DNA of 10,545 nt from a virus, in the UHGV virus genome UHGV-1711741; one strand, 5' to 3'. Below the pieces are notes generated by a model that searched no databases, was not told where the DNA came from, and worked only from the letters and a program-made list of their open reading frames with translations. Shown one piece after another: positions 3,732 through 10,431 of this stretch. Made by a program: the position numbers and the translations under genes. The first letter of the stretch is position 1. Every line of letters begins with the position of its first letter.

Positions 3732-3744
3732 TCTTTGACGATTT

Positions 3745-3776
3745 AAGGGACCTTCGGGTCCCTTTAGTTGTTTTTA
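3745..3776 (+). terminator. Rho-independent terminator after gene 23
   Basis: Perfect 8-bp stem AAGGGACC / GGTCCCTT closed by a UUCG tetraloop (3753-3756), followed by a T-rich tract (TAGTTGTTTTTA). Confidence 0.8.
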
Positions 3777-3779
3777 TGG

Positions 3780-3787
3780 TATAAATA
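3780..3787 (+). promoter_or_regulatory. T4-type late promoter motif TATAAATA for gene 24
   Basis: Exact TATAAATA immediately after the gene 23 terminator hairpin, ending 27 nt upstream of the gene 24 ATG. Confidence 0.75.
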
Positions 3788-3814
3788 AATCATATAAACT
3801 GAAAGGAAAGCGCA

Positions 3815-5098
3815 ATGGCTAAAATCAACGAACTTCTGCGCGAATCAACCACAACGAATAGCAACTCAATCGGTCGCCCAAATCTCGTTGCTTTGACTCG
3901 CGCTACCACTAAATTAATATATTCTGACATTGTAGCAACGCAAAGAACTAATCAACCTGTTGCTGCTTTTTATGGTATCAAATACCTTAACCCGGATAAC
4001 GAATTTACATTTAAAACTGGTGCTACTTACGCCGGCGAAGCTGGGTATGTAGACCGAGAACAAATCACAGAATTAACAGAAGAGTCTAAATTAACTCTCA
4101 ATAAAGGTGATTTATTCAAATATAATAATATCGTTTATAAAGTATTAGAAGATACACCATTTGCTGATATTGAAGAAAGCGATTTAGAATTAGCTCTTCA
4201 GATTGCAATTGTTCTTTTAAAAGTTCGTCTATTTTCTGATGCTGCAGTAACAAGCAAATTTGAAAGCTCTGATAGCGAAATTGCGGATGCTAGATTCCAG
4301 ATTAATAAATGGCAAACCGCAGTTAAATCTCGTAAACTTAAAACTGGCATCACAGTCGAATTAGCACAAGATTTAGAAGCAAATGGATTCGATGCTCCTA
4401 ATTTCTTGGAAGATTTGCTTGCAACCGAAATGGCAGATGAAATCAATAAAGATATTCTGCAGTCTTTGATTACAGTGTCAAAACGCTATAAAGTTACAGG
4501 AATTACTGATACTGGATTCATTGATTTGAGTTATGCATCTGCGCCTGAAGCTGGTCGTTCATTATACCGAATGGTGTGTGAAATGGTTTCACATATCCAG
4601 AAAGAATCAACTTATACAGCAACGTTCTGTGTTGCTTCAGCTCGTGCCGCTGCGATTCTTGCTGCATCAGGTTGGTTAAAACATAAACCAGAAGATGACA
4701 AATATCTTTCACAAAATGCCTACGGGTTCTTAGCTAATGGTTTACCGCTTTATTGCGATACCAACAGCCCATTAGATTATGTAATCGTTGGCGTAGTAGA
4801 AAATATCGGTGAAAAAGAAATTGTTGGATCAATTTTCTATGCTCCGTATACAGAAGGTCTTGACTTAGATGACCCTGAACATGTAGGTGCATTTAAAGTT
4901 GTAGTTGATCCAGAAAGTTTGCAGCCATCTATCGGTTTATTAGTTAGATATGCTTTATCTGCAAATCCTTACACTGTAGCAAAAGATGAAAAAGAAGCAA
5001 GAGTAATTGATGGTGGAGACATGGATAAAATGGCGGGTCGTTCAGATTTGTCTGTTTTATTAGGTGTTAAGCTACCAAAAATTATCATTGATGAATAA
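3815..5098 (+). CDS. 24: Capsid vertex protein gp24 precursor (paralog of gp23)
   Basis: 427-aa ORF with clear internal similarity to gp23 (shared ELAQDL block and surrounding residues). TATAAATA lies 27 nt upstream of the ATG, with an AAGGA Shine-Dalgarno. N-terminal L8-R9-E10 fits the L/I-x-E protease cleavage motif. Confidence 0.9.
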   Translation: MAKINELLRESTTTNSNSIGRPNLVALTRATTKLIYSDIVATQRTNQPVAAFYGIKYLNPDNEFTFKTGATYAGEAGYVDREQITELTEESKLTLNKGDLFKYNNIVYKVLEDTPFADIEESDLELALQIAIVLLKVRLFSDAAVTSKFESSDSEIADARFQINKWQTAVKSRKLKTGITVELAQDLEANGFDAPNFLEDLLATEMADEINKDILQSLITVSKRYKVTGITDTGFIDLSYASAPEAGRSLYRMVCEMVSHIQKESTYTATFCVASARAAAILAASGWLKHKPEDDKYLSQNAYGFLANGLPLYCDTNSPLDYVIVGVVENIGEKEIVGSIFYAPYTEGLDLDDPEHVGAFKVVVDPESLQPSIGLLVRYALSANPYTVAKDEKEARVIDGGDMDKMAGRSDLSVLLGVKLPKIIIDE

Positions 5099-6711: not shown

Positions 6712-7563
6712 TTATGGATAGGTATAGATGATACCAGTTTCTAAAGCAGTTTTATGAATGATGTATCCATTACGCGATTCTTGAACATCAACTTCTTGAT
6801 AGTCTTTCATCATCTTCTGAAGAGTGTAACGATGCAGGTAGTATTTACTGTCTGGATCTTCAGTTTTCCAATCTTTACCTTCTTCGGTCATTTTTTGGAT
6901 TTCATCCATAACCCACCAACCGCACCAGATATAAGCTGAAGTACGATGTGGAAGAGGATGAACATAAGGCAATTCACCTTCTGGTTCCGGAGCAACTTTA
7001 TCAGTTACCTGAACTTGGCCTGTTGCTTTAACTGTTTTACTATCATAGTCGGTTGCTGTAACGACAGCAGTAACTTCAATAGTTTGACTTCCAATAGATG
7101 AGGTGTCAACGGTGTATACGTTAGTTGATCCTTCTACAGGAGAACCGTCGACGTGCCATTGATACGTAGCAGATGCACCTGGCGGCTGTGAATCTAAGGC
7201 AGCAGTAAATTGAACTGGAGTTCCAATTACTCCAGCTGAAGGACTATTAGGAGTTACTGTTATTGTAGTAGTCTGTGTCTTATTTTGAACTGTGATAGTT
7301 GTCGTAGTTTCTGCTGTTTCAGGTTCAGCTTCAGATTCTGGAACTGTATTTGTTGCAACCACCTTAATAGTCTTTTGACCTGCAGGTCCTTTTAGTACAT
7401 AGCTAAAAGTTGCTTCAGCTCCATCCTGTGGAACATTATCTACACTCCAAGCATAGGTAATAGTTCCACCTTCAGTTTGACCACTGGGTGCAGCAGTAAA
7501 CTGCTTGGTTTCATCAATAACTCCTGTTGGGGTTTTAGGAGTTATATCAACTGTAAAAGTCAT
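6712..7563 (-). CDS. hoc: Hoc, highly immunogenic outer capsid protein (Ig-like decoration protein), short 283-aa form
   Basis: N-terminus MTFTVDITPKTPTGVIDETKQFTA. Two internally repeated Ig-like modules (TYAWSVD vs TYQWHVD; GVIDETKQFTA vs GVIGTPVQFTA), Thr/Val-rich beta-strand composition, and a conserved C-terminal capsid-binding region (YIWCGWWVMDEIQKMTEEGKDWK). Start lies 9 nt downstream of the inh stop. Confidence 0.85.
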   Translation of the reverse strand: MTFTVDITPKTPTGVIDETKQFTAAPSGQTEGGTITYAWSVDNVPQDGAEATFSYVLKGPAGQKTIKVVATNTVPESEAEPETAETTTTITVQNKTQTTTITVTPNSPSAGVIGTPVQFTAALDSQPPGASATYQWHVDGSPVEGSTNVYTVDTSSIGSQTIEVTAVVTATDYDSKTVKATGQVQVTDKVAPEPEGELPYVHPLPHRTSAYIWCGWWVMDEIQKMTEEGKDWKTEDPDSKYYLHRYTLQKMMKDYQEVDVQESRNGYIIHKTALETGIIYTYP

Positions 7564-7572
7564 AAGTTATCC

Positions 7573-8253
7573 TTATTTTAATGTTACGAAAGAAGAATTG
7601 CGTGTTTCACGAATTAGAACTGATCCATCACGATTAATGTAGTAAATTAAGCTAAATAACGTTTGGTGCGCCGACGCGTGTTCAAAACTAGTTGGGTGAG
7701 ATTTCCAATCAGGAGTTTCAGCAATCCATTGATAAATCCACCAAGGAACAGTACAGAATCCTGGATTTTTTCCAATCAGCTGAAGATTCGGACTAAAGTT
7801 TTCCGGAAGAGTAAATACAGACGGCTTTTCAGATTCAATAATCTCAGCTACAGCCTGTTCAAATTTTTCTTCAACAAATGGAGTATCTTCAATCAAAACA
7901 TCGGTATTTTCAGGAATTTTATCTGTTTCTACTACTTCAATTTTAATGTCAGATTTAACCGGAGAATCAATCAAAAGTGCTGCTTCTGGATTGACTTCTT
8001 CATCGTCATATTTTAACCCCTCTGCAGCATCAGCAGCATCAATTAAGTCTTTAATAGATAACCCATCAGTCTCCGGCATAGGTTCACTAGCGAGCTTCTG
8101 GAGAGCTTCTTCAATATCATTAACGATATTATCAAAAGATTTATTCTTTTTGACCTTTATACCAAACTGTTCAGCATATTCAGCTAATTTAGCTTTAGCT
8201 TCTTTATTATCATCAAGAGCCTTCAGCTCTGCAATATAATCTTTATCTATCAT
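7573..8253 (-). CDS. inh: Inh-like protein (inhibitor of the prohead protease gp21)
   Basis: 226-aa ORF directly upstream of hoc on the minus strand, as I recall for T4 inh. Good Shine-Dalgarno (GAGGA) before the ATG. Acidic, non-repetitive protein. Assignment rests on synteny and recalled size only. Confidence 0.65.
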   Translation of the reverse strand: MIDKDYIAELKALDDNKEAKAKLAEYAEQFGIKVKKNKSFDNIVNDIEEALQKLASEPMPETDGLSIKDLIDAADAAEGLKYDDEEVNPEAALLIDSPVKSDIKIEVVETDKIPENTDVLIEDTPFVEEKFEQAVAEIIESEKPSVFTLPENFSPNLQLIGKNPGFCTVPWWIYQWIAETPDWKSHPTSFEHASAHQTLFSLIYYINRDGSVLIRETRNSSFVTLK

Positions 8254-8266
8254 AATATTTCCTCAG

Positions 8267-8274
8267 TATAAATA
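8267..8274 (+). promoter_or_regulatory. T4-type late promoter motif TATAAATA upstream of the homing endonuclease gene
   Basis: Exact TATAAATA in the 49-bp inh-segE spacer, ending 28 nt upstream of the segE ATG. Confidence 0.6.
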
Positions 8275-8280
8275 TAGATA

Positions 8281-8288
8281 TATTTATT
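8281..8288 (-). promoter_or_regulatory. Candidate variant late promoter (AATAAATA on the minus strand) for inh-hoc
   Basis: Plus strand reads TATTTATT, i.e. AATAAATA on the minus strand, one mismatch from consensus. It ends 27 nt upstream of the inh ATG, the same spacing as the gene 22 and gene 24 promoters. Confidence 0.4.
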
Positions 8289-8302
8289 ACTCGGAAAATA
8301 GT

Positions 8303-8920
8303 ATGTACCACTTTGTATATGAAACAACAAATCTAATAAATGGTAAAAAGTATATAGGAAAACACTCTACTGATGACTTGAATGATGGTTACCTTGGTTC
8401 CGGTAAGGCAATTCAGCAGGCTATAAAGAAATATGGTGAAAACAATTTCTCTAGAACAATACTAAAAGAGTTTAAAACTTCCGAAGAAGCGTACATGTAT
8501 GAAGAAGAAATTATAACTCCTGAAATAATAAAAAGCAAAAATTATTATAATATGAAACCTGGTGGAATTGGTGGAATTGTTATGACTACAGAGGTTATAG
8601 CAAAGATGAAAGAATCTTCCGCTAAGAGATTTGAAAACTCACCGGGCACGGTATTAGGTACAACTTGTTACACTAATGGAACTAAAAATATTTTTATTAA
8701 ACCTGGAGAACTTGTTCCAGAAGGATTTGTAAAAGGGATGGTTCATCCTAATAGAAAGTCCAGAAAAGGATGTAAAGTCAAACCGACTACCACAGGAACT
8801 TTTTGGGTCAATAATGGCGTAATAAATAAATTAATACAACCAGACGGTATTATTCCCGACGGATTTATTAAAGGTCGTCTCATGAAAAGAGATTCTAAAG
8901 GCAAATTTAGTAAGGCATAA
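8303..8920 (+). CDS. segE: GIY-YIG homing endonuclease (SegE-like free-standing endonuclease)
   Basis: 205-aa ORF. N-terminal GIY-YIG module (F-V-Y at residues 4-6, K-Y-I-G at 16-19, about 10-residue spacing). C-terminal half has two tandem ~22-aa repeats ending in P-[ED]-G-F-[VI]-K-G, typical of modular DNA-binding regions in phage homing endonucleases. Very AT-rich. Sits between inh and uvsW, where I recall T4 segE. Confidence 0.8.
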   Translation: MYHFVYETTNLINGKKYIGKHSTDDLNDGYLGSGKAIQQAIKKYGENNFSRTILKEFKTSEEAYMYEEEIITPEIIKSKNYYNMKPGGIGGIVMTTEVIAKMKESSAKRFENSPGTVLGTTCYTNGTKNIFIKPGELVPEGFVKGMVHPNRKSRKGCKVKPTTTGTFWVNNGVINKLIQPDGIIPDGFIKGRLMKRDSKGKFSKA

Positions 8921-8922
8921 TT

Positions 8923-10431
8923 ATGGATATTAAAGTACATTTTCACGACTTCAGTCATGTACGCATCGATTGTGAAGAGAGCACGTTCCACGAATTAAGA
9001 GATTTCTTTTCGTTTGAGGCCGATGGATATAGATTTAACCCTCGCTTCAGATATGGCAACTGGGATGGACGAATTCGTCTTTTAGATTATAATCGCCTTC
9101 TTCCATTCGGTTTAGTCGGGCAAATTAAAAAGTTCTGCGATAACTTTGGCTATAAAGCCTGGATTGACCCACAGATTAACGAAAAAGAAGAATTATCAAG
9201 AAAAGATTTTGATGAATGGCTTTCTAAATTAGAAATCTATTCAGGAAATAAAAGAATTGAACCGCATTGGTATCAAAAAGATGCAGTGTTCGAAGGATTA
9301 GTTAATCGTCGTAGAATTCTTAATCTTCCAACATCCGCAGGTAAATCTTTAATTCAAGCTTTGCTTGCACGTTATTATTTGGAAAATTATGAAGGTAAAA
9401 TTCTTATCATTGTTCCAACAACTGCTCTAACAACTCAGATGGCTGATGACTTCGTTGACTATCGTTTATTCAGTCATGCAATGATAAAGAAAATTGGTGG
9501 CGGAGCATCAAAAGATGATAAATATAAAAATGATGCACCAGTCGTTGTTGGTACATGGCAAACTGTAGTAAAACAACCGAAAGAATGGTTCTCACAGTTT
9601 GGAATGATGATGAATGATGAATGCCATCTTGCTACAGGAAAAAGTATTTCATCTATCATATCAGGTTTAAATAACTGCATGTTCAAATTTGGTCTATCTG
9701 GTTCATTACGTGATGGCAAAGCCAATATCATGCAGTATGTTGGAATGTTTGGTGAAATATTTAAGCCAGTAACGACTTCTAAGTTAATGGAAGATGGACA
9801 AGTAACTGAGCTAAAAATTAATAGTATTTTTCTTCGCTATCCCGATGAGTTCACTACTAAATTAAAGGGAAAAACTTATCAAGAAGAAATAAAAATTATT
9901 ACGGGGCTTAGTAAAAGAAATAAATGGATCGCTAAATTGGCTATTAAGCTTGCACAAAAAGATGAAAACGCTTTTGTCATGTTTAAACATGTATCACATG
10001 GTAAAGCTATTTTCGATTTAATTAAAAATGAATACGATAAAGTTTATTACGTATCAGGGGAAGTTGATACCGAAACCCGCAATATAATGAAAACCTTAGC
10101 TGAAAATGGTAAAGGAATAATTATAGTAGCTAGTTATGGTGTATTTTCTACTGGTATTTCAGTTAAAAATCTGCATCACGTTGTTTTAGCGCACGGTGTT
10201 AAATCAAAAATCATTGTATTACAAACAATCGGTCGTGTATTACGTAAGCATGGTTCTAAAACAATCGCAACAGTCTGGGACCTCATAGATGACTGTGGTG
10301 TCAAGCCAAAATCTGCTAATACTAAAAAGAAATATGTTCACTTGAACTATCTTTTAAAACACGGCATTGATCGTATTCAGCGCTACGCAGATGAAAAATT
10401 TAATTACGTAATGAAAACAGTTAATTTATAA
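8923..10431 (+). CDS. uvsW: UvsW DNA/RNA helicase (SF2, DExH box), as a 502-aa ORF
   Basis: Walker A motif LPTSAGKS with Lys141 (the residue I recall as the T4 UvsW ATPase lysine). DECH motif II (MMNDECHLA). Motif VI-like QTIGRVLR. Start is 2 nt after the segE stop. Confidence 0.9.
   Translation: MDIKVHFHDFSHVRIDCEESTFHELRDFFSFEADGYRFNPRFRYGNWDGRIRLLDYNRLLPFGLVGQIKKFCDNFGYKAWIDPQINEKEELSRKDFDEWLSKLEIYSGNKRIEPHWYQKDAVFEGLVNRRRILNLPTSAGKSLIQALLARYYLENYEGKILIIVPTTALTTQMADDFVDYRLFSHAMIKKIGGGASKDDKYKNDAPVVVGTWQTVVKQPKEWFSQFGMMMNDECHLATGKSISSIISGLNNCMFKFGLSGSLRDGKANIMQYVGMFGEIFKPVTTSKLMEDGQVTELKINSIFLRYPDEFTTKLKGKTYQEEIKIITGLSKRNKWIAKLAIKLAQKDENAFVMFKHVSHGKAIFDLIKNEYDKVYYVSGEVDTETRNIMKTLAENGKGIIIVASYGVFSTGISVKNLHHVVLAHGVKSKIIVLQTIGRVLRKHGSKTIATVWDLIDDCGVKPKSANTKKKYVHLNYLLKHGIDRIQRYADEKFNYVMKTVNL

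Follow-up and report, generated by a model that had tools for sequence, protein, structure and literature searches.

The locus

The window, by which we mean the whole stretch of 10,545 nucleotides that was analysed (UHGV virus genome UHGV-1711741), corresponds to the head-gene region of a T4-like phage. Mapped against the T4 annotation, its ORFs are in order genes 67, 68, 21, 22, 23 and 24 on the plus strand; these are followed by rnlB, 24.2, 24.3, hoc and inh on the minus strand, and then by a 205-aa ORF and uvsW, both on the plus strand. The last three reading frames form the locus considered here:

7573..8253, minus strand: inh (hoc.1), left neighbour, from the ORF list and the T4 annotation
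8303..8920, plus strand: segE coding sequence, an intact ORF of 205 aa with its ATG at 8303 and a TAA stop at 8918-8920
8923..10431, plus strand: uvsW helicase gene of 502 aa, right neighbour and host gene of the target site, from the ORF and the T4 annotation

Position 8254 is the first base past the inh start codon, so that the interval 8254-8922 is made up of a 49-nt spacer, the ORF and a 2-nt gap. The distance of 2 nt between this gene and uvsW, which the original prediction had emphasized, can be read directly off the sequence, where the stop codon of the ORF is followed by TT and then by the uvsW ATG at 8923.

The neighbourhood has some further features of its own. Genes 23 and 24 lie only 83 nt apart (3732-3814 of the window), with the consensus TATAAATA at 3780-3787 between them; in T4 this junction is occupied by the homing endonuclease gene segD, which is 672 nt long and runs on the opposite strand. 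Since segD is missing between 23 and 24, the window phage is segE-plus but segD-minus, and represents a natural empty site for segD. The hoc gene (6712-7563, minus strand) encodes 283 aa, versus 376 aa (1131 nt) in T4, and is therefore shorter by about one immunoglobulin-like domain; a single weak PKD-domain match, under the Pfam cut-off, was found in its product. As for uvsW, the window gene has 502 codons, versus 587 aa annotated in the T4 RefSeq record (12678-14441 of the retrieved T4 stretch), which itself flags sequence discrepancies within the uvsW stretch. Phage ESh27 has a helicase ORF of 504 aa and, after it, a distinct ORF of 76 aa (4778-5008 of the retrieved ESh27 stretch). Given the 502-aa uvsW of the window and the split ORFs of ESh27, uvsW and uvsW.1 seem to have been fused in the long T4 annotation.

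Identity of the gene

The ORF product is identical to T4 SegE (NP_049795) at 201 of 205 aa, with no gaps (E 1e-153), and the four substitutions relative to the T4 protein are I75L, E97D, T120K and V173A. In T4, segE is located at 112057-112674, between inh and uvsW, with the orientation and the 2-nt gap seen in the window, and the 49-nt spacer after inh is common to both genomes. The same gene is annotated as segE in RB3, RB5 and RB6, and the product of phage vB_Eco_F25 is 100% identical to that of the window. The window as a whole has no identical record in the phage collection, the best being that of vB_EcoM_G4507, at 98.0% identity.

Protein identity and genomic position and orientation both match, and on these grounds the ORF is the ortholog of T4 segE. 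The stretch 8303-8920 can thus be assigned with high confidence to segE, the gene of a free-standing homing endonuclease of the GIY-YIG class, in a T4-like phage (Tequatrovirus). Precisely such a free-standing seg gene had been predicted at this place, between inh and uvsW, and the 98% aa identity to T4 SegE bears this out; what had not been recognised is that segE is already known, as a named and experimentally characterised T4 gene. Intronless homing has had segE as its textbook case since 1997, and this copy, at 98% identity to it, carries little weight as a discovery. Its value is rather that of a clean illustration, in that the comparison of filled and empty sites shows what travels with an endonuclease gene.

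The nuclease domain

The amino-terminal part of the protein is accounted for by one domain:

8303..8572, plus strand: GIY-YIG nuclease domain, aa 1-90, from Pfam, family alignment, AlphaFold and Foldseek

The catalytic motif had been placed at V5-Y6 and Y17-I18-G19, and these positions are exact. In profile searches the protein exceeds the cut-off of the dedicated Pfam model SegE_GIY-YIG (PF19835), with 37.6 bits where 25 are required (E 3e-9); with the generic model GIY-YIG (PF01541) it reaches 20.9 bits, just short of that model's cut-off of 22.6, and TIGR01453 scores 33.7, below its cut-off of 56. The protein also matches PHROG 314, 'homing endonuclease' (E 9e-44). Across 58 full-length homologs the residues Y6, Y17, G19, D28, Y30, G32, S33, G34, K43, G45, N83, G87 and G88 are invariant, and E67 is conserved in at least 90%; all of the family-invariant residues are present in the SegE of the window. 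The GIY-YIG assignment therefore holds on a profile above its cut-off and on an alignment in which the catalytic tyrosines, Glu and Asn are all present.

A profile built from the 58-homolog alignment matches the I-TevI catalytic domain in the PDB with Y6, Y17 and G19 in register; N83 aligns to I-TevI N90, and E67 falls within one position of I-TevI E75. No SegE residue is aligned to the catalytic Arg27 of I-TevI, the R27 segment falling in a gap of the profile alignment; what SegE-type proteins have instead are the invariant residues D28, Y30, G32-S33-G34 and K43. The AlphaFold model of SegE has a mean pLDDT of 85.7, with values of 95-98 over aa 1-80, and its best PDB matches in Foldseek are 1mk0 and 1ln0, both of the I-TevI catalytic domain, with a probability of 1.00.

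Distribution and empty sites

The presence of segE was assessed by megablast of phage records with the inh-segE-uvsW 5' region (7573-9400) as query, carriage of the gene being defined as query coverage of at least 80%. Matches were found in 683 phage records, and 159 of these (~23%) reach that coverage. The distribution is sharply divided at the protein level, as a tblastn search with SegE returned 159 records with at least 95% identity, 10 with 60-80%, and none with 80-95%. In an evenly spaced sample of 60 records, segE was present in 14 and an empty site in 30, the latter recognised by 65% query coverage with inh followed directly by uvsW. The RB30 record Y13611, in which hoc.1 and uvsW are annotated, belongs to the empty-site records, and RB18 and G4498 are also empty. 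More distant homologs occupy the same locus in the Gelderlandvirus NP4 (65% identical) and in the Mosigvirus ESh27 (47% identical), and away from the inh/uvsW locus no non-segE homolog in the phage records reaches 60% identity. With 159 carriers in 683 records and many empty sites, segE is optional, in agreement with what had been said of such genes among T-even phages. The inh-uvsW junction is empty in many close relatives, and the comparison of this interval that had been proposed as a check yields the patchy pattern, with insert-free relatives, expected of a mobile element.

Two of the records examined hold additional features. In NP4 (Salmonella phage vB_SenM-AKM_NP4), uvsW is annotated in two pieces split by a 291-aa ORF (4089-4964 of the retrieved stretch), which matches NUMOD3 and a TnsA-like endonuclease N-terminal domain, both weakly and below the cut-off. 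Located downstream of the SegE homolog, this ORF may represent another free-standing nuclease gene that splits uvsW. In phage vB_EcoM_G10400 (MK327937.1, 109315-111319), the match to 7573-9400 spans 2005 nt, versus 1828 nt in the window, and is broken into two pieces, which suggests an additional insertion of ~177 nt somewhere within inh-segE-uvsW.

What is known of SegE activity comes from T4. The original study (Kadyrov et al. 1997, FEBS Lett 415:75) reportedly places the cleavage site at the 5' end of RB30 uvsW, and T4 DNA is reportedly cut too, less efficiently. A review lists segE as free-standing, GIY-YIG and demonstrated mobile, with inh/uvsW as its insertion site and uvsW as its cleavage site (PMC2988022). 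Another paper, on SegB, which sums up the 1997 work, locates the T4 SegE cleavage site between hoc.1 and uvsW in the segE-less phages RB30 and RB52; it describes homing as almost 100% efficient and as requiring intact segE and homology, with co-conversion of the flanks (PMC2330249). The two sources differ slightly on the position of the cut ('uvsW' in PMC2988022 versus 'hoc.1-uvsW intergenic region' in PMC2330249). The inh-uvsW junction of insert-free phages had been predicted as the target, and the literature places the cut of T4 SegE there or at the uvsW 5' end, in phages that lack segE. By analogy with T4 SegE, from which it differs at 4 residues, the allele of the window would be expected to cleave and to home likewise.

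Boundaries of the inherited unit

The extent of the sequence that is inherited together with segE was delimited by aligning four empty sites (RB30, RB18, G4498 and G2285) with the window and with T4. Two nested features resulted:

~8291..9058, plus strand: co-inherited segE cassette, from the junction alignment, the identity profile and the codon comparison
8923..9058, plus strand: divergent 5' block of uvsW, codons 1-46 or about 47, ~139 nt

On the left, the flank is the same as in the empty sites through 8290, and the first difference occurs at 8291; the inh flank taken whole has 97-99% identity to RB18, G4498 and RB30, and is hence near-identical in segE-plus and segE-minus phages. On the right, uvsW begins with a block that is ~73% identical to the segE-minus allele (21-23 of 30 nt) and then returns abruptly to 98-100% (28-30 of 30) in the comparison with RB18, G4498 and RB30, the last difference from G4498 being at ~9058. 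Relative to the segE-minus allele, the first 47 codons of uvsW have 22 synonymous and 5 non-synonymous changes, and codon 2 (Thr) is lost. Within this block the window and T4 differ by one base. From the identity through 8290 and the divergence up to ~9058, the co-inherited unit can be placed at about 8291-9058; it contains the segE ribosome-binding region, the segE ORF and the divergent 5' block of uvsW. Judged by these alignments, the inherited unit exceeds the ORF, since besides segE it takes in the initial ~139 nt of uvsW.

In segE-less phages, the homologous counterpart of this uvsW 5' block is the stretch with the SegE target. The block would represent a segE-linked version of the target that is poorly cleaved, and that is carried along by co-conversion. 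A different origin for its divergence agrees equally well with the comparisons and is a serious possibility: the block might be donor flank brought in by co-conversion from a more distant phage, and not the product of selection for resistance to cleavage. The abrupt end at ~139 nt, where identity returns to its high level, is what such a transfer would leave; moreover, uvsW of NP4, whose SegE homolog is 65% identical, also lacks codon 2 and has a similar stop-TT-start junction, and flank co-conversion is documented for SegE (PMC2330249). The two origins are not exclusive, however, and the excess of synonymous changes (22 of 27 changed codons) fits either of them. The choice touches a single step, that of selected resistance, and leaves the identity of the gene as it is.

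In the empty site of RB30, the region reported to include the target of SegE contains a 27-nt direct repeat (712-738 and 758-784 of the retrieved stretch), 74% identical and 46 nt apart. Its core, AAAGTACATTT, occurs twice, and the second copy is changed to AGAGCACGTTC in the window by synonymous substitutions; the repeat may be due to chance. A pairing of one SegE protein repeat with each copy of the DNA repeat was considered and rejected as unlikely, because the DNA copies are 46 bp apart whereas the protein modules are joined by ~16 residues, and because short two-copy DNA repeats often arise by chance.

The C-terminal repeats

Beyond the nuclease domain, SegE consists of a linker and two repeats:

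8588..8638, plus strand: linker helix, aa 96-112, from AlphaFold
8648..8737, plus strand: repeat copy 1, aa 116-145, from self-alignment, with a model beta-hairpin at 120-124/129-132
8786..8875, plus strand: repeat copy 2, aa 162-191, from self-alignment, with a model beta-hairpin at 167-170/175-178 and pLDDT of 92-95

Two C-terminal repeats of ~22 aa had been predicted. They are real and their coordinates are exact, nt 8672-8737 translating into TNGTKNIFIKPGELVPEGFVKG and nt 8810-8875 into NNGVINKLIQPDGIIPDGFIKG, but the unit is longer than that and comprises 30 aa, namely TVLGTTCYTNGTKNIFIKPGELVPEGFVKG at aa 116-145 versus TTTGTFWVNNGVINKLIQPDGIIPDGFIKG at aa 162-191. The Smith-Waterman score of the repeat is 71, while shuffled sequences have a mean of 22.1 (sd 4.5, maximum 47), and none of 5000 reach 71. 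At the nucleotide level the copies have 43 of 66 nt in common. The segment that joins the two beta-hairpins, 150-158, is modelled with low confidence.

The two copies differ in their distribution. Copy 2 is near-universal in the family, with G165, W168, G172, G191 and R192 conserved in at least 90% of the 58 homologs, and PHROG 10820, 'HNH endonuclease', matches SegE at aa 154-199. Copy 1 is confined to close relatives, and many other homologs carry NUMOD3 motifs in the linker instead: NUMOD3 (PF07460) is found at the linker-equivalent position in many full-length homologs, while the SegE of the window has no NUMOD3 match.

Homologs of the C-terminal 91 aa were sought with a word index, which yielded 2 candidates and was uninformative. 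An exhaustive HMMER search with aa 116-205 gave 689 cluster representatives at E ≤0.001, 99 of them at E ≤1e-10, with 2-7 matched stretches per protein. Among the best 149 of the 689, Pfam domains were NUMOD3 in 30, SegE_GIY-YIG in 25, GIY-YIG in 17, HNH in 6, and HNH_3 and zf-His_Me_endon in one each; the majority of these 149 have no Pfam match whatever. A pattern count found 585 distinct modules of ~31 aa in 200 of 269 proteins, at 1-8 per protein and with a spacing of mostly 30-50 aa. The module has the consensus xxGxxW(I/Y)(T/N)NGxxNKxIxxxxxIPxG(W/F)xKGR, and its fold is predicted from the model to be a beta-hairpin.

Being joined to GIY-YIG, HNH and NUMOD3 units in variable copy number, the SegE repeat behaves like a nuclease-associated modular repeat, one that falls outside the Pfam NUMOD families. 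The NUMOD-type module that the original prediction had proposed to look for is thus borne out in behaviour but not in family, since no Pfam NUMOD model matches: the profiles NUMOD1 (PF07453), NUMOD3 (PF07460) and NUMOD4 (PF07463) gave zero matches to SegE at E values up to 10. More generally, no model in Pfam or NCBIfam matches the SegE C-terminal repeat. In Foldseek, the whole model searched against the PDB returned nothing credible for the C-terminal half, the matches being to the I-TevI nuclease domain only, and a profile of 100 repeat modules gave nothing significant against all PDB sequences (best E 0.43). A literature search for NUMOD2 found no paper, and the GIY-YIG phylogenomics paper contains no description of the SegE C-terminus.

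A role of the repeat in DNA binding would follow from its partner domains and from the way GIY-YIG homing endonucleases are built, as proteins of two domains in which the DNA-binding one is C-terminal (PMC3664794). That the repeats act in some other way, for instance in folding or in contacts with proteins, is improbable. The failure of solved structures and named DNA-binding families to provide a match would agree with such a function, but the module occurs in hundreds of proteins, and those with a recognised Pfam domain are nucleases of the GIY-YIG or HNH type, frequently equipped with DNA-binding motifs of the NUMOD3 kind; within SegE, moreover, nothing else offers itself as a DNA-binding domain. 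On the DNA-binding interpretation, we suggest tentatively, as something possible and not as the likelier case, that the SegE repeat is a DNA-binding module hitherto unnamed and structurally undescribed; it may also have been described already, e.g. among the NUMOD types of Sitbon and Pietrokovski 2003. If the suggestion is correct, the copy number and order of the modules could set target length and specificity in many phage homing endonucleases. The module, widespread in phage nucleases, is the sole part of this locus that could repay further work.

Expression signals and the proposed course of homing

Two putative signals flank the coding sequence of segE or lie at its end:

8267..8274, plus strand: late-promoter consensus TATAAATA in the inh-segE spacer, an exact motif match with predicted function
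8911..8915, plus strand: Shine-Dalgarno-like TAAGG for uvsW in the last segE codons, 7 nt before the uvsW ATG, with predicted function

T4 late genes use TATAAATA, not sigma-70 promoters. A scan of 8100-9100 for sigma-70 promoters and terminators gave fewer sites than shuffled sequences and nothing relevant. The motif at 8267-8274 is the only exact late-promoter consensus near segE; within segE there is no exact copy, one-mismatch variants being found at 8422, 8683 and 8821 only. The same TATAAATA stands before uvsW in empty-site phages, ~37 nt ahead of its ATG, from which it follows that the insertion put segE between uvsW and the uvsW late promoter. To judge from these sequences, the insertion of segE would have taken over that promoter and supplied uvsW with a new ribosome-binding site. 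It is reasonable to expect, as the original prediction did, that gain or loss of segE would change uvsW expression. According to the review, the promoter of segE lies upstream in non-coding DNA, and segE itself contains a promoter for the gene downstream (PMC2988022); the segE sequence, with its one-mismatch variants only, does not confirm the latter.

That segE is a decayed or domesticated remnant, no longer cutting and kept for the promoter and ribosome-binding site of uvsW, is highly improbable: the TAAGG within segE, the position of the sole exact TATAAATA before uvsW upstream of segE, and the view of the review that embedded expression signals favour the keeping of such genes (PMC2988022) could all be cited for it, but the ORF is intact and 98% identical to an active T4 enzyme, every family-invariant residue is retained, and 159 phage records have a product with 95% identity or more.

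For segE as a functional homing endonuclease gene, the following course can be proposed. In T4, according to the literature, SegE acts in mixed infections with segE-less phages: it cuts the competing genome at the inh/uvsW junction or at the 5' end of uvsW, and break repair from the segE-carrying genome copies segE and its flanks into the competitor, with an efficiency of almost 100%. The allele of the window would do the same. The mostly synonymous changes of the uvsW block would lower cleavage of the carrier genome, and the block would travel with segE by co-conversion. In the carrier, segE and uvsW would be read from one late transcript, and translation of uvsW would start from the ribosome-binding site within the end of segE.

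Comparison with known systems

The closest counterpart is T4 SegE itself. The two proteins are equal in length, and their genes agree in locus (between inh, or hoc.1, and uvsW), in orientation, in the 2-nt gap and in the upstream spacer with TATAAATA. The allele of the window differs from it by the four substitutions and by its host phage, which is not T4; in addition, the window is without segD between 23 and 24.

The T4 enzyme I-TevI (PDB 1ln0, 1mk0) shares the catalytic fold of SegE, with a TM-score of 0.57-0.63 normalised on the target. Its GIY/YIG tyrosines and the C-terminal Asn align with those of SegE, and in both proteins the nuclease domain is followed by a separate C-terminal region. 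However, the identity is only ~25%, and SegE is free-standing whereas I-TevI is intron-encoded. The Arg27-bearing helix of I-TevI is replaced in SegE by a conserved D28-x-Y30-x-G-S-G loop, and the C-terminal region of SegE has, with no zinc finger or helix-turn-helix match, two beta-hairpin repeats instead.

The SegE repeat resembles the NUMOD modules in its small size, in its variable copy number and in being attached to both GIY-YIG and HNH domains, often beside NUMOD3; it differs from them in being a predicted beta-hairpin, not a helix. At the level of the locus, SegE resembles other free-standing T4 homing endonucleases that show intronless homing, namely SegF, SegG, SegB and MobE. Their genes are likewise intergenic, they cut in or near the neighbouring gene of an endonuclease-less phage with co-conversion of flanking markers, and the endonuclease gene and its neighbour have expression signals in common. 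They differ from SegE in the loci that they occupy and in the targets that they cut.
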